NCBI GenBank assembly: GCA_903813345.2
Contig: CAIIXF020000001.1
Coordinates: forward strand, 19,096,001-19,160,000
Source: Owenia fusiformis
Taxonomy: Eukaryota
Direction: 5' to 3'
DNA: 64,000 bases
Shown: piece by piece, positions 2,861 to 58,935 of the stretch
Numbering within the stretch: position 1 is the stretch's first letter
Layout of the letters: every line of letters starts with the position of its first letter
Notes under the pieces: generated by a model
What the model was told of the DNA's origin: nothing
Database searches by the model: none
The model's input: only the letters and a program-made list of their open reading frames with translations
Translations under genes and position numbers: made by a program

Positions 2861-4716
2861 TTCTCATAATAATAAGTAGTGATGAAGTGATAGAGAGTCC
2901 ATTTGTATATCAAGAATAATGATTAAGCACTATGTTAAGAAAAAATTCTGGAGACCACTGTATATTTTGTTTGTCATATAAGATGCAAGTAGCAACAGAT
3001 TATTTATTCTTGGACCAACTACCACTTGTGAAAAGAAGCTGCAGTTCGTCATCTTGTTTAGACGAAGCATTATTTCCCAATTGACAACATATCAGTTTAC
3101 TAATCATGTAGTAACTGAAATAATGAAGTTGATATGGAGGATTTTTGGGAAAGGTAAGAAGTGAGATACTGGAAGAATTATATACAAAAATATCTTCTGG
3201 ACTTCTCCATACTGTGTCAGAAATCTATTATTCTAGGGAATATCTAGTTTTTCCCATACATCAATTCGATGACTCATATGATAAATTACGGCCACTAATT
3301 AACTTCTATATTATACTCATAGACTCCTTCAGATTGTTCAGAAGAGGTTATTCCGTGACTTCTGATGCATGGGTTCAGCTTATCATAGCATAACACATTG
3401 TAATACAGTATCATGATGTAGGAGTGGCAACACCCTTTTGTCAGAGGTTGACTTTGTGTTACCAAAAGCATCTTTATCTATGAAGGCTAGACTGCTTTCT
3501 AAATGTGTCCAAAAGAGGCCCTTATCTATAAAATGTGGCAGTACTGTGATGGGTTTCATGGCATATGATTCCCAGGGGCATAATGGTAATAACAATCCAT
3601 AAATAGGTCATAGCCTCAATCATAATCAATTTGTCTTTCAAACCTGACAATGAAGAGATCATTTGTGCCTTAGAAAATGCTCTTTTGACATGAAACTATA
3701 GCACATAAATATCTACAAAAGGATGTTGAATTAATTATCTTGCACTGGGCCCTTGTAATCTGTCTCAAAAAATAAATTCAACACCAACCAGGGCTTTATG
3801 TAAGATGAGAAGTCAGTGCATTCAACAAGCAGGTTTTGCTAATTTTGCACCTTTATTCACCACTCATCCCTATCTGATTCCCGAAAAGTGAAAATGGAAG
3901 GAATAACACATGGTGTTGATGCAAGACTATCCAGGAAACAAAATTTCTCTTTACTCTATTGGAAGAACAAAGAAACTTGTGGTTGAGTAGTTCCTGAGCC
4001 TTGATCCAGATGATGACTTCCAGTGTTTCCATAAAGACAAGACAGATACATATAATTTACATGGCCCTTGATACAAGTACCAATCAGTACACAAGACCAA
4101 TACCTCATTCCCTGATTGCTTATGAATTAATACTTAATGATGGATGTCATCTCCAGCTTCTTGCTTCATTGCCACCGATTCATTATGACATAATAATACT
4201 GGCTATGACACCCCCAATGTGCCTGTAATTTCCATAGACACAACATAATAGTCATATTGCAAATATCATTTCCATCAAGCCAAATTACTATCCATCTCTC
4301 TTGAGAATGGCAGCTAAATATTAGCTATAGGATGAAGATTGATATATTTGTACGGGGTTAACATGAGTCATCCATCTGTAGATTTATCCTATATTATGAT
4401 CTAGGTACTGTATAGGTACTACCTACTAGGTAGAGTAGCACTACAGTGCAATTTGATCTATGTTGATCAGGAATCAGTATTTTCAATACTTGATGTATAC
4501 CTTTGAAAGGTGAGGGTGAGGACATCTACCAATCGCCAATGCTTTCATTAAATGTGGCACAGGTGTGTTTGATCACACATGAGAGAGAGAGGTTCGCTTC
4601 CTAGCTAGACAGCAACAATTATGTAATTTGGTTTAATTGAATTATCATGTTTTATAGACTCATGATCAGGGAAGCGAAAGTAACATATGTTTTTGGGCAT
4701 CTTGGGGCACTTATAA

Positions 4717-22802: not shown

Positions 22803-24338
22803 GAGGTCGTTATCTTCATCGTCTAGTTTACGAATACCAAATGTCGATGTGATGTTTTAATTGATAAATACGAATTCCTTACACATTTCGTTATCTTATT
22901 GTGAAATAGCAAACTAAGAGATATCTTAAGTCGCTAGGAATTAACATAATATTATTTGAAGCGATTTTAGAAAATTTTGAAACCGCCATCTTGGTAATAT
23001 TGATGACGTGATCACCATCGGTCAAGGTCAGGTCAAAAGTCATCCATCTTGCCATTTGCCCGGCGTGTTCTTACCAGTCGACAAAAAACGATGAAATCAC
23101 GTTGAAAATAAAATATACACTTTAAAATTGAGGCTGATCGAATATGACAAGACTCCATTGAATACAGCTGTGCAATTTACAGTCACCAAGATGAGCTAAT
23201 TTCGGAGAGATTCGGGAATTAAAAAAGGTAAGCACTTCCGGTTTCCCAACTTAAAAGTATTTGAAGTCCCAGAATTTCGCCAGAAACATTCTCTCTGACT
23301 GTGTTGACAATAGACCACTCAGACATTTGATGCCAGCTCAATGCAATTTTATTGGTGATTAAAATGACTAGTGGTGGGACTCGCCACCAAAATCTCTCCT
23401 CGAGTAGAATGATAAATTTGACGAGCGAGTAGAGAATTTTGGCGATTATTTTTTTTTTAAATTGAGAAAATTAGAACACCTGGAAATTCAAGGCATTTGT
23501 CACTACTTACATGGACTTTTGGTTTAATGACCATTCAATGATGCAGTTCTGGATGGATTGAGTTCTGTTTTGGATGTTTTAGACTCACATTTACCATATA
23601 TTAGCAATGATATAAGCCTTTTGGATTTTTTCGACTTTGAAATCCCCACTTCCATTAAAATACATATGCGCATAATCTTGCTTTGTGTCTCGTTGTTGAT
23701 TGTGGTACAAGTATGTGTAAAAAGTGAAATTCTTGCTTAAATCAATAATTTTCACCACAAAATAAACAATTCTTAAAATCTACTCATGCTGCTTATTATT
23801 CACTGATAATGGACAACTAGTACTACAGTAATAACACCAGATGCAATGTTAATTAATTAGCGACAAAACTTACCAAATGCTCACTAGTGAACTATCACGA
23901 AATTCAAGATCAATATGCAGGGAATTCAGATGTCGTCTATTTAGTATTTACATATGAGGAAGTAAAACGAAAGAAGAAGCATGATTTATTGCATTAGAAT
24001 ACAATAGAATACAATATTAGACATATTATTGCAAAACAATTACGAGGGACAGTCATTGGTTTCAAATTTCGTGATTATGTTAGACACAGTCTTACCTCTA
24101 AGTGCAAAGGCGAAAGTTCGAGAATTTGAAACAGATTTCAGATTTCCTCTTGAAAATCTTACAAAACACAAGTATTAGAGGCTGACGGTAATTCCGGTTA
24201 TACGGTTTCGGTACGGAATTGAGCATTTACCGGTATTGAAATTATTAACCGGTTAACCGACGATAATCCCCGGGGAAATAAAAGACACGTCGTTTTTTTA
24301 ACTATTTCGTTTAATTTCCACTTTCACGATGCGTACAT

Positions 24339-24707
24339 TTACATAGACATTAAGATGTCCATGTTTGGCAGTTCAGGTGTGATTTCCATGTTTCGCAGTT
24401 CAGGTGTTGTAGCTTCATGCTGAGGCTCAGATTTGGTTGTAGTTATGTTTGGCAGTTCCGGTGTAGTTGTAGTGTCAACGTCAGATCCAGAAACTGAATT
24501 ATGTTTGTAATAGTCATTTACGAACAACAAGGCATTGACAACCTCAGGTTGAAATCGTGCCCGTTTGAAAGTGATGGTGTTGCCAGCTGCACTGAACTGG
24601 CGTTCACTTGACACGGATGACGCAGGAATAGCATGATATGTTTCAGCCAAACTCGCCACATCAGGATATTTTCCTCCGTTCACTTTCCAGAACTCAAGAC
24701 AGTCAAT
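24339..24707 (-). pseudogene. hAT transposase C-terminal dimerisation-domain remnant
   Basis: IDCLEFWKVNGGKYPDVASLAETYHAIPASSVSSERQFSAAGNTITFKRARFQPEVVNALLFV matches the hAT dimerisation-domain pattern. Confidence 0.9.
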
Positions 24708-24905
24708 TTTTTTTTTTTAACATATTATTTATTTCCTTCATAATCAAAAAATACACAAAATATCTACTACCAATCGCCATAGGCATTCTAGGTAGTTTAA
24801 ATTACAATAGAGGATTAATTACAGTAATCATAGATGGTTTATTGGTAATGTGAGAGGTTGGGAGGGAGGGGGGGGGGTTGTCACAAGATACAAATGAGAA
24901 AAACA

Positions 24906-27900
24906 TTAATTTGATGGAAACTTATAACAGGCCTGTACAAATTGCATCACTATATCTATCAGGATTTTCTGAGAATCAATAGTGAGTTCATTTTCATAAA
25001 TTAAGTATTTGACCTGTTCTGTCTTACTAGAAATAAGTTGAGTATCAAACAATAAATTTTGTTCACGAAGTGCAGTCATCATTTTATTACGTTCATGGGT
25101 ATGGCGAGGGCAGGTTAGAATGAAATGCTTTGTATCTTCAGTAGAGCCGCAGAGGCATTTGTTGTCAATTATTCCAGTAAAATTATGAGTAAAGAAATGG
25201 TCTTTAAGGGCAAAATCAACTCGAAGCCTATTTAGCAGTTTTTCGTTGGTTCTACTTAAATTTAGTTTTGTAGTTGGTATAAAGTTTGAAATAGGGATAA
25301 ATATCTGTTTAATAGAGCTTTTGAATCTAGAAATGGTTTGAATTTCACGAAAAGTCTGGCTTAGCTGGTTCCAATCATTTATAAGTTTTAAAACTGGTGC
25401 TTTGGAGAGTCTCATTGAAATATTTCTTGGGCAGGAAAAGGGTAAAGAGTGTCTTAAAATTCTAGTTGCTTGGTTGCGATGTTGGTCAAAAAGACTATGG
25501 ACATAATAAGGCACTTCCTTTCTTACAATTTTGAACATCAGTCTTAGATTTTTTTCGTGTCTTTTGTCAGTAAGCGATTTCCACTGTAAACATTTTAAAG
25601 TTTTTGAGGTGTTAGAGCCATGCAGTACCCCAGCACATATAACAGCAGCTTGGTAGTGGATTTTATCAAGCTTTGACAAGGCCGCCAAGGATGACGATCC
25701 GTAAATGGAGCTACAATAGTCAAAATGAGACGCCAAATATGAATTATACATTATTTCAAGATGGTGCGACTGTATTTTGTTTGATATGAGCTTCAAAGGA
25801 TTTAACAGCTTTTGAACTTTATTAGACAGATAGTTTATATGATCATTAAAAGTCAAATTCTCATCTAAGATGAAACCCAGGTGCTTATGTGATTGCTTTT
25901 GGGGGATCATTTCACCATCAAAGTAAAGCGGAGACATTTGAATATTTTTTTGACGGGTTGAGCGAAAAACTAAATGAGCACTTTTAGATGCTTTAAATTT
26001 CAATTGCCAGGTTCTAGACCATGCACTTAAAAGATTTAGGTCATTTTGGAGTTGGCCAGTTTGATTACCAGAAGGGTGAAAGAAAGAGTATAAGGAGGTA
26101 TCATCTGCATAGATAAAAGTTTTCGAGGTCAGAGTGTCAGGGAGGTCATTTATGTATATCAGAAACATCAGGGGTCCGATTATGGAGCCCTGAGGCACAC
26201 CGGAGTTTATGAAGTGGTCAGGAGAGAAGTTTGATGTGTGATCATCTACAGTGACACAGACTTTTCGATTTTCTAAGTAAGAAGAGCAGAGGTCGGCTAA
26301 TTTACCTTGAATTCCATATGATTTCATCTTGTGAATGAGTAAGTTATGCGGTACAGTATCAAAAGCAGACGCCACGTCTAAATAAACAGAATTAACACAG
26401 TTACCTTTTTCCATTTCGTTAAAGATATAGTCAGTTATTGCTAAAAGTTGTAGCTCAGTGTTGTGTCCTGGAAGAAATCCAGATTGAAATTGATAAAGAA
26501 GGTTATTTTCAAGTAGATGCGTTAAAATGCGATTATGCACAACTTTTTCAAAAATTTTGGAAAAAGTGCTTAGCAAAGTAATCGGTCTATAATTCTCAAC
26601 TTGAGATCTATCAGACTTCTTATAAATTGGAGAAATGTTTCCAAGTTTCCAGCAACTAGGAAATTGGCCACATGCAAAAATCATGTTAAACAATTTTGAT
26701 AACTGGAAGGATAATGCTTCCTGGGCTATTTTTGTCATTCTGTTATTAATTTTGTCAAGACCACAGGCTTTATCACGATCAAAGGACTGGATTATTTGAA
26801 GAATTTCATCTGGATTGGTAGATAAATGGTCAATTGATATTCCAGTTCTATTTGGAAAATGTGGAAGTGCATCGTTATCCACTTGGTTTAAATTATGATA
26901 TTTTGAAGAAAAAAAGTTAAGGAAACACTCAGCTTTTTCACCCTCAGTTGTAGCTATGTGATCTGAAAAATTGCACTTCAAACTAGGGAGTAAAGCATGA
27001 AAAGTTCTGGATAGAAAAGAATTGACTATGTTCCAGTACTGTTTTCCTTTACAGGTTGATTCATTAATCTGTTTTACAATATTTTCCTGGTAATTTAATT
27101 TTGCCTCTTTTATTAAGGATTTGACCTTTTCAGCTTGAGCAGTGTAGTTGTCAAAAATAGTTGTGTCATTTTTTGATTTGGTTTTCCGATAAAGTCGTTC
27201 TTTCTTATTGATTTCGCGTTTAATTTTTGAGTTCATCCAAGGTTGATCATTTGCATTTAAAATTGTTGTTTTTTGAGGAATGTATTTTGAAAATATGTCA
27301 AAAATATGACAAGAAAAGCTTTCAGTTGTAACATTAATGTCTCTATTACTCTGATTATATAGTTCAGTCAGGTCAAAATTACGAATGTTGGAATTTATAC
27401 CCTCAATATCAGCCTGGTCATATTTCCAAATGGTTTTCTTTAATTTGTGTCTCTTACTGAGTTTTAACAGAAGAGTGGTCAAAATAGTAGAGTGGTCAGT
27501 ATTACCAATAGGGTCAGAAACAACCAATTCCCTTACAAGAAAAGGCTTGTTTGTAATAGAAAGGTCAATGCAGGTTCTTGAGTTTCTTGTTATTCTGGAA
27601 GGCTCTTTTACTAACTGGATAAGATTTAAGTTGGATAAAATAGAGTCAAGTTTATTGCCTCTCGAGTCAGTAGTACCTTCAGGCCACCATTTTTGATGCT
27701 TGGAATTGAAATCACCGTTTATAATTAGGTGGTCACATTTTATCTTGGATGCTTTGGAGAGATTTTCCCTTAGATGGTCAAAATAAACATTTTCCTCATT
27801 TACATTCATACTAGGAGAGCGATAATGTACACCAAATAGTATTGAAGTATTTCTAACTTTGATATTAACCCAAAGACTGTTATCAGTATTCAAATCCGGC

Positions 27901-28616
27901 ATGGGAATGTAGGTAAGGTCAGATTTAATGTATATCATGAGCCCTCTACCCCCTTGATGATAAAGGGGAGAGTGATAGTCAGGAAGTAAGTAGTTTTCAG
28001 AAATAATCTTGTCATTCAAATTGCCTACTTCACAGAGTCCAGCTACCGATACCCCATGTTTTCTTAATCTATGTTTAAAACTTTCAAACCTGATACCTTC
28101 CCCACTGCTTATGCTGTTAATGTTTGAGAAAAGGAACTTGAGATCATGCTGCATGGTACATGTAGAGTGAGGACCAGGATGAGTTTCAATGTCGCCGGCC
28201 TGCAAGATTAAATCACTTTGGTCAAAAATGTAGACTGAAGTTTGAAAAATCAAGACAGTGAGTGTGAAATTGTCAAAAATATTTGCATATTTTACATTGC
28301 CTATAAGCTTCATAAGCATTTGCATTGACATAAATAATGTAACAAACATGACTGTTAACAAGTAGATTATGACCACAATAGCCATGAGCCTAGTTAATTC
28401 ATTAAAGAGTTTATTGTAATTATTTGTCAAATCAATGCAGGAAATTATATCTAAGGTGAGTAGAATAAGGTATATAAGTATTAAGACTGTTACAAAACTT
28501 GGACTTGACATTTGCCTCTTAGTACCATTGTTTTTGATTCTCAAACCTGGTATTTTGATTCTCGAGTTAAAAATTCCAATTCTGCTTCGCCACGACTGAA
28601 TGTCGACTGCACCCAT
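24906..28616 (-). CDS. LINE ORF2: hydrophobic leader, 2A-like motif, APE endonuclease, reverse transcriptase, C-terminal CCHC finger
   Basis: 1236 aa. APE motifs NINS, GLCE, YRSP, GDFN, CIDL, TDH. RT motifs YRPITLL, QSGF, LDVASAFD, GVPQGS, YADD, HLG. C-terminal CLCGSTEDTKHFILTC. Confidence 0.97.
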   Translation of the reverse strand: MGAVDIQSWRSRIGIFNSRIKIPGLRIKNNGTKRQMSSPSFVTVLILIYLILLTLDIISCIDLTNNYNKLFNELTRLMAIVVIIYLLTVMFVTLFMSMQMLMKLIGNVKYANIFDNFTLTVLIFQTSVYIFDQSDLILQAGDIETHPGPHSTCTMQHDLKFLFSNINSISSGEGIRFESFKHRLRKHGVSVAGLCEVGNLNDKIISENYLLPDYHSPLYHQGGRGLMIYIKSDLTYIPMPDLNTDNSLWVNIKVRNTSILFGVHYRSPSMNVNEENVYFDHLRENLSKASKIKCDHLIINGDFNSKHQKWWPEGTTDSRGNKLDSILSNLNLIQLVKEPSRITRNSRTCIDLSITNKPFLVRELVVSDPIGNTDHSTILTTLLLKLSKRHKLKKTIWKYDQADIEGINSNIRNFDLTELYNQSNRDINVTTESFSCHIFDIFSKYIPQKTTILNANDQPWMNSKIKREINKKERLYRKTKSKNDTTIFDNYTAQAEKVKSLIKEAKLNYQENIVKQINESTCKGKQYWNIVNSFLSRTFHALLPSLKCNFSDHIATTEGEKAECFLNFFSSKYHNLNQVDNDALPHFPNRTGISIDHLSTNPDEILQIIQSFDRDKACGLDKINNRMTKIAQEALSFQLSKLFNMIFACGQFPSCWKLGNISPIYKKSDRSQVENYRPITLLSTFSKIFEKVVHNRILTHLLENNLLYQFQSGFLPGHNTELQLLAITDYIFNEMEKGNCVNSVYLDVASAFDTVPHNLLIHKMKSYGIQGKLADLCSSYLENRKVCVTVDDHTSNFSPDHFINSGVPQGSIIGPLMFLIYINDLPDTLTSKTFIYADDTSLYSFFHPSGNQTGQLQNDLNLLSAWSRTWQLKFKASKSAHLVFRSTRQKNIQMSPLYFDGEMIPQKQSHKHLGFILDENLTFNDHINYLSNKVQKLLNPLKLISNKIQSHHLEIMYNSYLASHFDYCSSIYGSSSLAALSKLDKIHYQAAVICAGVLHGSNTSKTLKCLQWKSLTDKRHEKNLRLMFKIVRKEVPYYVHSLFDQHRNQATRILRHSLPFSCPRNISMRLSKAPVLKLINDWNQLSQTFREIQTISRFKSSIKQIFIPISNFIPTTKLNLSRTNEKLLNRLRVDFALKDHFFTHNFTGIIDNKCLCGSTEDTKHFILTCPRHTHERNKMMTALREQNLLFDTQLISSKTEQVKYLIYENELTIDSQKILIDIVMQFVQACYKFPSN

Positions 28617-29599
28617 TAACCTATGCCTGACTTGACTGCACTGTTGGTTAACTGAAAGGTATATATGCTAGTAACAAATGGTAAAAAGCTAAGTAAACAG
28701 TATTTAGAAATGTAAAAGTAATCCCCATCCCCAACCCAACCTCTATGATTGATAATTTCCAAAAGTATGCACACATGTAGTGTGTGCATGACAATAAGGA
28801 ATATGGGTACATTACACATGGTGTTATGCAACAAAGGTTTTTTGATGCAAAGATATAGGAAGTACAACTCAGTTATGGAATCATAATTACAGTAGCAAAG
28901 TACCAATTTCAGGATAAAAAGTAGCCTGGTAGCCAGCAAAATGGACTACATGACACATGAAATACAATGGGCAGCAATATTAAAACAAAAACAAAAACAG
29001 TAATACATGGCAACAATACAAAACTTGCTTGCGATTCATCATAATCATAGTATATGCTTGCAAGCTACTATAACATTTATACATTACAGTATATAGACTC
29101 TAATAGAGTAATACATACTGGAGAAAAATAAATCTAAATAGTAAAATGTTAGTCAGGCTCGTATATAAAATTCGAAAAACGAACTTCTCCAGTAGTTCTA
29201 TTTACAAAGGTGTTCGTTGAGAACATCATTATATACAGAAGGAAAAAGAACTCACCGTGTTTTTAGATTCAAAAGACAGAAACGTGAAATATAAATTTGA
29301 TAAAAGCACACTTCCGGTTTCCGGAAGGTCAAATAGTCACGTGACAGAGAGATGTAAACAAAACAACTGGAGAAAATCGTCAAGTTTAGCACGAGCAGCA
29401 GCTCATTAAGACGTTCATTTGTCAGTGAGGAAAGTTATGTTCGGTTATTTTAGGAATCTATATTGATAGTTTATACACTGATGTTACTTTCTGCATGGTG
29501 ACCAGCGTTTTCTATAACTTAAATCAACAAGGGTAACAGTGGTGAGTGAGGGAATGTTCACGAGAAAGTTATGGCAATCGTCCAAGCACACCAAGGTAA

Positions 29600-30565
29600 T
29601 TAAGACCTGGCAATGACAGAGTCAATGTTATCGTTGATTGAGAATACTTTGATTGTACCAGATTTGAGTTTACCATACACTTTCATGTTATTGTACCATG
29701 CTTGATCAATATCGTTGTGCTGCTTGACATCTTTCAGTAGTACTCTGTTTCTCGGACTGAGATCATGGTAAATTCTCACATTGGTGCCTTTTAGGTGGCG
29801 CTTGTTTGACATTACTTTGTCCTTAACAAGTCGGTCAAAGAATTTGGCTATGATTTGTCGTGGCTTCCCATCTCTTCCAGGCAAACGGTGGGCAATTTCA
29901 ATGTGATCAGGTTCAATCATAGCTCCTGCAGGCAGGTGATCATTTAGGGTTTTACAGAGAGTGTCAATACACTTTTCAACAGACTCATTTTTGTCATCAG
30001 CGATCCCAACGGCACGTAATGTGGATTTCCTGCTGTATTGAGCATTATGATTTACCTCAAGGGCTAGCTGATCTTGCTTAACAGTCATATCAGTATGGGA
30101 TTTCTCCAATATCATGATTCTGGACTTCAGAGTGTCATTTTCTTCACGAAGTTGTTTTAGATCAGTAGATAGCTTTATCGTGGATTTTTCAATTTCATGC
30201 TTCACCATATCACGGATTTGAGACATTATCTGGGTGTTATTTTCATTAAGTAATGTTCTCATAACGGTAGTAAGAGAGAGGATAGTTACCGGTTGCTCAG
30301 AATCCATATCATGTGGATCGTCTGTGGTGCATGTACCTGAGGATGCTTCACCGAGAGCTTTCTCAAAAACGTCATCGTACGGTACTGGCGAAGTTTCACT
30401 GTCCTTACTTGGGAACCCCGCTTCACGTCTATTTCGCTTCACGGGTATAGTTATCGAGGATGGCTTATCAAAGTCCTGTGCAAGTTGTCCACCATCTTGG
30501 TTTTTATCAGCACGAATTTTGACGAAGTCAGTAATCGCCGGTTGGTTGTCCTGTAGTTTGGACAT
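29600..30565 (-). CDS. LINE ORF1 (coiled coil, RRM and CTD; L1/Transposase_22-like)
   Basis: 321 aa. Heptad-rich region followed by QYSRKSTLRAVGI, IEIAHRL, PRQIIAKF and VRIYHDLS motifs typical of this ORF1 class. Lies inside the TSDs. Confidence 0.9.
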   Translation of the reverse strand: MSKLQDNQPAITDFVKIRADKNQDGGQLAQDFDKPSSITIPVKRNRREAGFPSKDSETSPVPYDDVFEKALGEASSGTCTTDDPHDMDSEQPVTILSLTTVMRTLLNENNTQIMSQIRDMVKHEIEKSTIKLSTDLKQLREENDTLKSRIMILEKSHTDMTVKQDQLALEVNHNAQYSRKSTLRAVGIADDKNESVEKCIDTLCKTLNDHLPAGAMIEPDHIEIAHRLPGRDGKPRQIIAKFFDRLVKDKVMSNKRHLKGTNVRIYHDLSPRNRVLLKDVKQHNDIDQAWYNNMKVYGKLKSGTIKVFSINDNIDSVIARS

Positions 30566-31729
30566 GGTCTCAACTAATCCGCTGTATATCGTCTATAGAT
30601 ATTTATAAATGTTTTAGATTACGATAAATCGGCACAAATGTAGATATTATCACGTAAACTGAGTAATTACTCCTAGTCTTTTACAACGTGTTATTTGTTC
30701 TTGGCGCCATCTATCAAGACAGTCAATAAAATCTATTTTACCTACCCCACCCCCATGTATACTGCACGTCGCTTGCTATTGATACAGTTGAGAAATGGTT
30801 TGAAATGTGTAATACTGGCATTTAATTTAAAACTAAAAATACATCTTGATTCGTAAGATAGTTACATTCTATTTCGTGAAGTTCATCAGTATGGGTTCAA
30901 ATCGATCTTGCACCATGTATGCATATAGACTTGAGAAGCTACGAAGAGAGTTCGGAACAAAGTGGGGGTGGCAGCGCATTGGCATTTTATCTTACATATC
31001 TTTACCGGTATTTCGGTAACGGTACGGTTATTAGCGTGACGGTTACCGGTACTGGTTTTCAGTACCGTTGCGACCTCTAACAAGTATCTGACAACAAACA
31101 AGCGGAGTCTTTGGGTGTTTAGGTGGGTGAAGAATATGAGATGACTGGAAAAATCATGTTTTCTGCGAAATTCTGTGCCAAAACAAAAATTCTGCAAAAA
31201 ATGAAAATGAAAATTTTCTGCGGTTTTTCTGCGGCGAAGCGGAATCACGGAATACTAGTATGAGTGGTTGCTGTTCTCTGATTATATTGCATAGAGCAAT
31301 ATCTTGAGTATGTAATTATTGTCATGTTAAGGCAGTATAGTTATTACATCTTCAATCCCTCTACCTCATCATGGAATAATCCCTTGTCTCTTCTACCAAA
31401 AATTACTTTTTTTTGAATTAAGAATTACTTTGGACCTGAAAATTTTTGCATGTGAGATATTTTCCTGAGTATGTATCTTATATTTTGCAAAATTAAAATT
31501 TTGGGAAATAAAATATATACGAAAATAAATAGCAGGGAAGAGCTTGATGTAATATTATCAAAAATGAATAGATCAGAACATAAAAAATCTATAATGGAAC
31601 ATCTTGAGGTTTATTAGGGACTCAAACAAAGGGATGCAAAGTGTGTATAATAACCATGTTAGAGTAGGACAAGGTAGTTACAGTTTCACCACCAGGTGGC
31701 TAATTCAGGGCAGATAACATCTGGCAGGG

Positions 31730-58081: not shown

Positions 58082-58935
58082 TTATTATCCCATCGAACGA
58101 AGTTCGGAGGGATATAGGGAACGCCTCCGTCCGTCCGTCCGTACGTACGTACGTACGTCCGTACGTACATCTGTACGTCCGTCCGTCCGTCCGGGCAATA
58201 ACTCAAATACCATTGGCCCGATTTTACTCATATTTTGTACACATATACCCTATGGGGGTAGAAGTTCTGCTGGAAAGCTGATTTGCAAAATGGCCGCTCA
58301 TTTAAAAATGGTGGCCATTTTAGTGCCGATTTTACAGTAATTTAGGTGCAATATGTAAAACTGTAATAGCAATATGTTTTAAATGTAAAAAAATTATATA
58401 GGACATTAATAAAGCTAGAAATGTAGATATTAAAAAAGCACATGGCAGCCATCTTGAAAAATGGCGGCCTTTACTCGTTATTTTACGATTTTTGCTGTAA
58501 CTCGAAAAGTAGTGGAGCGACTTTGTTCATATTTGGTATGTGAATACTATAGGTATGGCACACTGTCTAATGACACTTTTGGTAGAAGGCGGCCATTTTG
58601 AAAAATGGCGGACATTTTGAAAAATGGCTGCCATTTTAACTTATTTTACTATAATTCGAAAAGTAGTGGAGCGATTTTGTTCATATTTGGTACGTGAATA
58701 CGTTTCAGCATGGCACACTGTCTAATGACACTTTTGGTAGAAGGCGGCCATTTTTCAAAATGGCCGCCATTTTAACGTTTTTTACTATAACTCGAAAAGT
58801 AGTGGAGCGATTTTGTTCATATTTGGTATGTGAATATTATAAGCATGGCACACTGTCTAATGTCACTTTTGGTAATAGGTGCCCATTTTGAAAAATGTTC
58901 GATGGGATTCGCTACGCTTTGGCGTTGCTGTTGTT
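58082..58935 (+). mobile_element. Helentron-associated interspersed element (HINE/DINE-1-like)
   Basis: subTIRs ATCCCATCGAAC (58087-58098) and GTTCGATGGGAT (58897-58908), inner inverted repeat, (CCGT/ACGT)n microsatellite, three internal ~140-150-bp repeats, 3' stem-loop and T-rich end. Confidence 0.85.

Follow-up and report, generated by a model that had tools for sequence, protein, structure and literature searches.

How the ORF2 protein of a long interspersed nuclear element (LINE) is produced from a bicistronic RNA has long been an open question. In the LINE of Owenia fusiformis considered here, the two open reading frames (ORFs) are separated by a spacer holding 20 ATGs. The element lies on the minus strand of the 64,000-nt stretch of DNA analysed here, termed the window (GenBank assembly GCA_903813345.2, contig CAIIXF020000001.1, positions 19,096,001 to 19,160,000 of the forward strand); all positions below are those of the window. 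An earlier note, made from the letters of the window alone, had read the spacer between ORF1 and ORF2 as an internal promoter followed by an intron feeding ORF2. Under the present analysis the promoter half of that model is plausible and has indirect support, whereas the intron half is without direct support: use of the GT...AG pair is unproven, and by default it is taken to be rare or absent.

A motif island in the inter-ORF spacer

The spacer carries, between positions 29309 and 29361, an inverted ETS-type pair, a palindromic E-box and a forkhead-like site (Table 1), assignments which we presume from the consensus sites of these factor families. Recomputation returned all motifs at the positions given by the earlier note, and a length of 983 nt (29599..28617) for the spacer that it had called unusually long at ~980 bp. 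The E-box is the single occurrence of CACGTG in the whole 64-kb window. CCGGAAG occurs at three sites on both strands of the window, two of which form the ETS pair, and these two and the E-box all lie within 37 nt; as a hairpin, the pair would form a perfect stem of 7 bp closed by a loop of 3 nt. With the sole CACGTG and two of the three CCGGAAG sites of 64 kb in one place, the cluster is not a chance event; it is non-random, far beyond what chance would give. The forkhead-like core TGTTTAC is frequent, with 9 sites on both strands of the window. What counts is the identity of the motifs and not GC-rich palindromes as a class.

The ratio of observed to expected CpG (CpG o/e) is 0.42 in the whole window and 0.55 in the whole element. 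Values above 1 were obtained in two of the measured parts only, namely the 5’ untranslated region (5’UTR; 1.73) and the cluster region, where CpG o/e is 1.47 for positions 29256-29365 (the cluster and the sequence that would form a first exon) and 1.26 for positions 29179-29380, the interval bounded by an inverted repeat described below. No tandem monomers were found in the window's own spacer, in which the only run of this kind is an (AAAACA)3 microsatellite. This run is a hot spot of variation among copies: 4 nt are deleted at 29023, a number of contigs in its surroundings are short, and reads are cut at 28972-29008.

The rarity of the motifs, a CpG richness shared only with the 5’UTR, the long, E-box-rich spacers found across the clade and the tandem monomers of one relative (L121, below) support a tentative reading of the cluster, the most probable of those weighed below, as an internal transcription-factor-binding island, a promoter or enhancer of the ORF2 module. 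The island would lie in sequence that corresponds to the 5’UTR of this module. Most likely it would start or boost transcripts that contain ORF2 and lack ORF1; antisense firing would also be possible because the core motifs are palindromic, and the GT...AG pair would aid an ORF2 transcript by removing 17 upstream ATGs. The published 2A-type relatives are mostly devoid of ORF1, so that transcription of their ORF2 has to be directed by the sequence just ahead of it. Protein binding, promoter activity, the direction of transcription and any subgenomic RNA are what we infer from these features. A promoter island in the spacer of a 2A-bearing LINE with an L1-type ORF1 would be new, and is proposed here as a candidate.

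The start of ORF2 and its 2A-like motif

The best database relatives of ORF2 (P0003 and P0004, which are not among the related loci compared at the DNA level below) are 36% identical to it in alignment. The N-terminus of ORF2 reads MGAVDIQSWRSRIGIFNS... and its pattern M..DI..YR.RIG.F is shared by 5 of the 6 relatives in alignment A1, which are 25-36% identical, the conservation covering the first 18 residues, and hydropathy analysis found hydrophobic stretches after this motif in 5 of the 6 proteins tested. The leader matched no Pfam family above the cut-off. In the same five relatives, GD(I/V)E.NPGP stands just ahead of the endonuclease domain; the copy in the window reads HPGP where 5 of the 6 aligned relatives read NPGP. 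No variant at the H codon is among the differences displayed for the sequencing runs, a set that comprises all but 44 rows, and the term 'HPGP' does not appear in two papers on 2A sequences, one of them PMC3708506.

The N-terminal motif shared with the relatives and the 2A-like motif downstream of it indicate that the ATG at 28616 is the real ORF2 start, and it follows that translation of ORF2 must pass 20 spacer ATGs on a full-length RNA. No coding function was seen for the spacer, and the ORF2 frame, taken from stop to stop, extends no further upstream than 28667. The conserved leader and the 2A-like motif at the ORF2 start, as predicted by comparison with the relatives, are a new point of this analysis: the features that the earlier note listed for this region are real, but these two and the inverted repeat had escaped it.

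Spacers of related elements

Scans of genome and metagenome contigs yielded 160 related loci at 21-42% identity, many of them on eukaryotic contigs that had been assigned to symbionts of bivalves and gastropods. Among L001-L080, many contigs filed under metagenome-assembled genomes of bacterial symbionts (Thiodiazotropha, Sedimenticola, SUP05, a Sulfurimonas endosymbiont and others) encode animal-type LINEs, and these are likely to be host DNA that was placed in the bin of its symbiont. The window spacer has no DNA-level similarity to any of the 160 loci. An ORF1-like ORF lies upstream of ORF2 in 12 of the 160, as judged with an ORF1 hidden Markov model for which 5 of these 12 were training sequences. 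The gap between the two ORFs is 829 nt in L156 (1260-2090), 1441 nt in L121 (1232-2674) and 1962 nt in L022 (1862-3825), all with 2A-type ORF2s, as compared with 983 nt in the window; a fourth 2A-type gap of 5407 nt (L019) is doubtful, its ORF1 fragment being at the locus edge. In loci with an intact ORF2 of non-2A type the gaps are -10, 18, 46, 51, 393 and 443 nt, and two further loci with broken ORF2s have gaps of 685 and 2189 nt. Long spacers thus appear to go with 2A-type ORF2s, in what is a small sample.

The 12.2 kb compared upstream of ORF2 in 10 elements contain 7 copies of CACGTG, distributed over 6 of the 10, against a background of 0.106 per kb over all loci and 0.062 per kb in the ORF2 parts; none of 500 shuffles reached 7. 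By this measure the ORF1-keeping 2A-type relatives have spacers that are both long and enriched in E-boxes, which is the second new point of this analysis. The spacer of L121 consists of ~3 tandem monomers of ~366 nt, two of which carry CACGTG followed 4 nt on by TGTTTAC, while the third has CATGTG; we take these units to resemble LINE promoter monomers. The earlier note had proposed aligning family copies for conserved motifs and splice sites as a check on its model. Among the relatives the E-box does recur, at variable distance, but the ETS pair is found in none of 9 upstream regions. None of the 9 carries a Y5CAG in the 60 nt next to its ORF2 ATG, and 2 of 9 have any GTRAGT. Upstream ATGs occur as near as 10-69 nt to the ORF2 ATG in most relatives, and their density upstream of ORF2 is 13-32 per kb in all.

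The spacer of L022 contains a nested ~243-nt repeat (3306-3549) with inverted ends starting TTAACCCTTTCAACGCC and flanked by TTAA, presumably a piggyBac-like miniature inverted-repeat transposable element (MITE) by its appearance, which recurs in six other loci (L010, twice, L024, L007, L026, L029 and L019). At L089, a T30 run beside a group of YY1-like and E-box motifs was considered as an element 5’ end and dropped, as diverged repeats lie on both sides of it.

Splice-like sites and the putative intron

The earlier note's consensus donor and acceptor are present as it described them, with GT...AG ends and the acceptor 35 nt before the ORF2 ATG, and its claim that splicing would remove upstream ATGs also holds, in that the putative intron holds 17 of the 20 ATGs of the spacer, the other 3 lying upstream of the cluster. 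The stretch from the ETS pair to the donor and the stretch after the acceptor each contain zero ATGs. Singly, splice-like sites of this kind are ordinary (per kb and strand of the window, 0.45 for GTRAGT and 0.85 for Y5CAG); their placement is less so. Among 20,000 random 983-nt segments of the window, 32% contain GTRAGT and 5.1% a Y5CAG among their final 60 nt; both are present in order in 0.67%, criteria that were chosen after the site had been seen. The T content of the putative intron on the element strand is 0.61-0.62 versus 0.41-0.47 in the ORFs, and its CpG o/e is 0.22-0.32, with 0.22 in the remainder at 28652-29178.

Positions 24700-30730 were compared with two raw RNA-seq runs under the same species label (X22 and X24) and with two contig runs, one presumed to be of RNA (X2) and one of DNA (X8). 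The RNA reads, 139 and 129 in number, are confined essentially to 24700-27931, the 3’ 3.2 kb, and occur in both orientations; a share of 0.29-0.32 of them continues into sequence unlike the element. The pattern resembles transcription through truncated copies and is uninformative on the spacer. Over 27932-30730 the depth is zero in 14 of 14 bins for X22 and at most 0.75, in 6 of 14 bins, for X24, so that the 5’ 2.8 kb of the element is essentially silent in both runs, and with next to no RNA depth there the RNA test of splicing or of an internal start is void. The 29256/28651 joint appears in none of the four runs, X22 and X24 barely covering the 5’ 2.8 kb. The earlier note had let its model fall if junction reads and an internal start were missing while the element is expressed; given this coverage, these RNA runs do not present that case. 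The sole joint listed is a 212-nt skip inside ORF2 in X8.

The contigs bridge both splice sites unspliced, the acceptor in X2 27549-29074 and X8 28255-28806, and the donor together with the cluster and ORF1 in X2 29045-29903 (depth 43.9) and X8 29073-30570 (depth 521.7). Contig depth over the spacer is ORF1-like (43.9-55.6 in X2 and 521.7-625.3 in X8), from which it follows that the spacer, including the putative intron, belongs to the full-length copies of the family. Intron-less insertions, the other trace that the earlier note had suggested looking for, are not among the forms listed for the contigs of X2 and X8, although contigs may hide rare variants.

Folding of the spacer RNA

The arms of the 28-nt inverted repeat are 82% complementary and 146 nt apart, and bracket the E-box, the ETS pair and the donor. 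The 28-nt stem dominates both the minimum-free-energy and the centroid fold. The 301 nt at 29100-29400 fold at z -3.49, with none of 100 shuffles as good; the whole spacer folds at z -2.50, with none of 20 shuffles as good and the long stem kept. In a scan of the element in 39 windows (mean z 0.11, standard deviation 1.12), the lowest value, -2.78, falls at 29360..29061, practically tied with the second-lowest, -2.76 at 28460..28161, where the sequence codes for the ORF2 leader and the 2A-like motif follows closely. A search of Rfam 15 over the element at E<=1 returned only a chance-level GlmZ match (E=0.71) elsewhere in ORF2, and the spacers of 4 relatives, compared for a homologous hairpin, yielded none. 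The 11-mer TTTTCTCCAGT (element strand) occurs twice, with its complement once between the two copies (29116-29127, 29185-29194 and 29366-29376), an arrangement that gives the right arm of the stem two alternative partners, one upstream and one downstream. A nested MITE carrying the cluster was considered and rejected: the inverted repeat is without a flanking duplication, and a contig of flat depth runs unbroken across the unit.

Weighing of the explanations

Several observations count against the island. Its palindromes lie in strongly folding RNA (z -3.49), for which a role at the RNA level is an equally good explanation; the enrichment of GC-rich palindromes in general is only mild (3 in the spacer versus 0.94 per kb in the window); and the CpG numbers behind the high ratio are small (5 in 110 nt). 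The ETS pair is missing from the 9 upstream regions compared, and part of the long spacer of L022 is owed to its nested MITE. No site where many molecules begin or end was seen in the runs, in which the cluster region has no RNA depth. The contigs show no depth step at 29300-29400 and run unbroken across it, so that no class of ORF1-less copies starting at the island is visible. Finally, copies of the family differ from the window by ~0.9% (13/1499 and 14/1526 letters), and retention of the motifs within a family this young is uninformative on constraint. The cluster may instead act as RNA, which we consider unlikely: the bicistronic RNA would then have a structured element in the 202-nt unit 29179-29380, with its CUUCCGG-AAA-CCGGAAG hairpin and self-complementary GUCACGUGAC, for example a platform for internal ribosome entry or shunting past the 20 AUGs, or a binding or dimerisation site for element proteins. 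The fold statistics argue for it, as do the many ATGs upstream of ORF2 in all relatives, which make a non-scanning route to the ORF2 AUG seem general in the clade, and an internal ribosome entry site (IRES) in long LINE intergenic regions is proposed in the passages compared of PMC3894237. The structure is, however, 560-760 nt upstream of the ORF2 AUG, which is far for an entry site; z values near -3 are modest, with the leader-coding window scoring alike; the searches for an Rfam family and for a homologous hairpin gave nothing beyond the one chance-level match; and the matches to transcription-factor consensus sites and the CpG richness are left unexplained.

The full model of promoter plus intron, with a start near 29300 and the 604-nt intron (29255-28652) spliced out to leave an ATG-free leader of ~80 nt before ORF2, is unlikely. 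The full-length genomic RNA would keep the intron, giving two RNA classes. The placement of the sites speaks for the model, with the donor 54 nt after the ETS pair, the acceptor close to a conserved ATG and 0.67% of random segments comparable, as do the confinement of the ATGs to the interval between these sites and to the sequence ahead of the cluster, and the T-rich, CpG-poor composition of that interval; moreover, with the left stem arm upstream of the proposed start, the donor-enclosing stem could form only in full-length RNA, which might be how genomic RNA keeps the intron. The ORF2-only spliced RNA of human L1, SpORF2, is a precedent (PMC2896524, passages compared). The model is opposed by the missing joint and the unspliced contigs of ORF1-like depth, by the rarity of both sites in relatives that tolerate ATGs 10-69 nt upstream of ORF2, and by the post hoc choice of the chance criteria; moreover, a spliced full-length RNA would keep both ORFs and the 5’ promoter and should seed an intron-less subfamily, of which none was seen in the contigs. 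Quite improbable is a reading of the cluster as inert, a piece of a host promoter or of another repeat that the master copy gained through template switching or nested insertion and that has no function, the splice-like sites having arisen by chance. LINE 5’ regions and spacers turn over fast, as the nested MITE of L022 illustrates, the unit is bracketed by an inverted repeat, the family is too young to show decay of a useless insert, and the ETS pair is not shared by any of the 9 relatives. Yet no target-site duplication surrounds the inverted repeat, the unit is not repeated elsewhere at visible copy number and lies in an unbroken contig of flat depth, the spacer is unlike any of the 160 related loci, and the clade-wide E-box enrichment and the CpG richness point to a recurring, maintained feature. 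Very doubtful, lastly, is a structure-gated, promoter-dependent splicing switch with two transcription units. In such a switch the full-length RNA from the 5’UTR promoter would be the ORF1 messenger and the template for retrotransposition, and the subgenomic RNA from the ETS/E-box island, with its 604-nt intron spliced out, would be an ORF2 messenger free of upstream ATGs; the genomic RNA would keep the intron because the donor-enclosing stem (29353-29380 with 29179-29206) needs a transcribed upstream arm.

Anatomy of the element and its insertion site

The coordinates of the element and its parts are given in Table 1. The same 14-mer stands at 30714-30727 and, after the A run, at 24694-24707, which delimits the element to 24708-30713. 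The 14-bp duplication, the 3’ A run and the presence of 5’-truncated copies in the contig depth profile are hallmarks of a LINE with an apurinic/apyrimidinic endonuclease (APE). In X8, contig depth climbs ~50-fold from 5’ to 3’ (521.7 in the 5’ part and 28,623 at the 3’ end), which is the usual profile of 5’ truncation. ORF2 matches the Pfam families Exo_endo_phos (E=2e-10) and Exo_endo_phos_2 (E=8.9e-14), followed by RVT_1 (E=1.8e-31). The single ORF1 protein has no Pfam match, but a profile of ORF1 and 5 relatives matches human L1 ORF1p 2ykp at E=7.6e-9 (2ykp/2yko at ~8e-9) and mouse 2ldy at 8.5e-5, and Transposase_22 is touched at 0.0053 by 2 of the 6 aligned ORF1 members. The first bases of the 5’UTR, TAGATGGCGCC, resemble what we take to be the YY1 box of the human L1 5’ end. 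A self-BLAST of 24001-31500 matched only itself, and no second copy of the element was found in the window. The element is a young, intact, multi-copy two-ORF LINE, of which the 983-nt spacer is an integral part.

The LINE is inserted in a hAT transposon, where it interrupts the C-terminal dimerisation domain of the transposase (Dimer_Tnp_hAT, E=3.9e-17, in the 3’ flank). The hAT coding sequence, on the minus strand, is split into 24480-24707 and 30714 onward, and its frame runs on across the target-site duplication. Elsewhere in the window, palindromes of the cAMP response element type (GTGACGTCAC, TGTGACGTCACA and TGACGTCA) and an (ACGT)n run are present (22652, 55031, 55645 and 58140-58170).

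Table 1. Coordinates of the LINE, its inter-ORF spacer and the features discussed in the text.
Feature	Position	Strand	Details
5’ target-site duplication	30714..30727		14 bp, ATTGACTGTCTTGA (element-strand reading); identical 14-mer after poly-A
Full-length LINE	24708..30713	minus	~6.0 kb; 5’UTR, ORF1, spacer, ORF2, 3’UTR, poly-A
5’UTR	30566..30713	minus	148 nt; begins TAGATGGCGCC; CpG o/e 1.73
ORF1	29600..30565	minus	321 aa; L1-ORF1p-like (coiled coil, RNA recognition motif, C-terminal domain)
Inter-ORF spacer	28617..29599	minus	983 nt; 20 ATGs
Inverted repeat, left arm	29353..29380	minus	28 nt; includes the TGTTTAC forkhead-like site
Forkhead-like site	29354..29361	minus	GTAAACAA (+ strand); TTGTTTAC on element strand
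Palindromic E-box	29336..29345		GTCACGTGAC
Inverted ETS-type pair	29309..29327		CACTTCCGGTTTCCGGAAG (+ strand); CTTCCGG-AAA-CCGGAAG(TG)
Donor-like site	29250..29256	minus	G|GTGAGT, sole GTRAGT in spacer; first intron base 29255
Putative intron	28652..29255	minus	604 nt; T-rich, CpG-poor; 17 ATGs
Inverted repeat, right arm	29179..29206	minus	28 nt; 49-76 nt inside putative intron
(AAAACA)3 microsatellite	28982..28999		variation hot spot among copies
Acceptor-like site	28652..28659	minus	CCTTTCAG|; last intron base 28652, 35 nt before ORF2 ATG (28616)
ORF2	24906..28616	minus	1236 aa; leader, 2A-like motif, APE endonuclease, reverse transcriptase (RT), C-terminal Cys/His motif
ORF2 leader	28197..28616	minus	~140 aa; conserved N-terminus (M..DI..W/YR.RIG.FNS), then hydrophobic stretches
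2A-like motif	28170..28196	minus	GDIETHPGP; H codon CAT at 28179-28181
ORF2 domains			APE endonuclease residues 177-375; RT residues 666-916
3’UTR and poly-A tail	24708..24905	minus	3’UTR ~190 nt; A run 24708-24718
3’ target-site duplication	24694..24707		first A ambiguous with poly-A tail

Comparison with known systems

APE-type retrotransposons without long terminal repeats (non-LTR elements) that bear 2A sequences belong to the Rex1, Crack, L2, CR1 and Ingi clades; most of them are without ORF1, the ORF1-keeping exceptions being CR1-26_BF, CR1-53_BF and CR1-1_LG (Odon et al. 2013, PMC3708506). The element of the window is probably to be placed with these, judging by the motif and its position. 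As in the elements described in those passages, the 2A-like motif is N-terminal in the ORF2 protein and just ahead of the APE domain, and ORF1 is kept as in the three exceptions. Unlike the canonical -GD(V/I)ExNPGP- of PMC3708506, the window copy ends in HPGP, while GDIET and the position match, and its ORF1 is L1-ORF1p-like rather than of the PHD/esterase type of neighbouring elements in that paper. A long spacer, a motif cluster and a conserved leader motif are not described in the passages of PMC3708506 compared.

PMC3708506 and PMC3894237 treat the expression of ORF2 across long intergenic regions as an open question, and the proposals made for producing its protein from a bicistronic LINE RNA are reinitiation, an IRES and, in human L1, the spliced SpORF2 (PMC3708506, PMC3894237, PMC2896524). 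An inter-ORF promoter for a non-LTR ORF2 is a different proposal, of which a full-text literature search, at the level of its result lists, turned up no published case. In human L1, splicing yields SpORF2, a translatable ORF2-only mRNA (Belancio et al. 2010, PMC2896524). Removal by splicing of sequence upstream of ORF2 is what the two cases would share; SpORF2 starts from the 5’UTR promoter and loses ORF1, whereas a separate internal promoter and an intron confined to the spacer are proposed here. SpIREs are retrotransposed copies of spliced L1 RNA with a precise internal GT/AG deletion (Larson et al. 2018, PMC5860796) and thus a genomic trace of LINE splicing; no such deleted copies of the window family are listed in the two contig runs. 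Drosophila TART, a non-LTR element, has several transcription starts, the major sense start being inside the 5’ region, and introns in some transcripts (Maxwell et al. 2006, PMC1636488). In TART it is antisense transcripts that carry the introns, and the internal start lies in the 5’UTR, whereas the start proposed here is between ORF1 and ORF2.

If true, the presence of a promoter island of its own in the 1-kb spacer would answer the question of ORF2 expression at the level of transcription, and it would explain how 2A-type elements gain or lose ORF1 as a module; in the clade pattern, long, E-box-rich spacers appear linked with ORF2s that have a 2A-type leader. Mouse L1 5’UTRs carry tandem promoter monomers, which the ~366-nt monomers of L121 resemble, except that the latter stand between ORF1 and ORF2 and not at the 5’ end. 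A functional intron or a spliced subgenomic RNA is found in Penelope-like elements, copia, Ogre and BARE, and in the env mRNA of retroviruses, and these retroelements likewise divide their RNA between a genomic form that stays unspliced and a messenger form that is spliced. To our knowledge, no APE-type LINE with an inter-ORF intron is among them. Should the intron of the window element prove real too, it would be the LINE counterpart of the division between genomic and subgenomic RNA in retroviruses; otherwise the element is a young LINE of the ordinary kind whose spacer is unusually dense in motifs.

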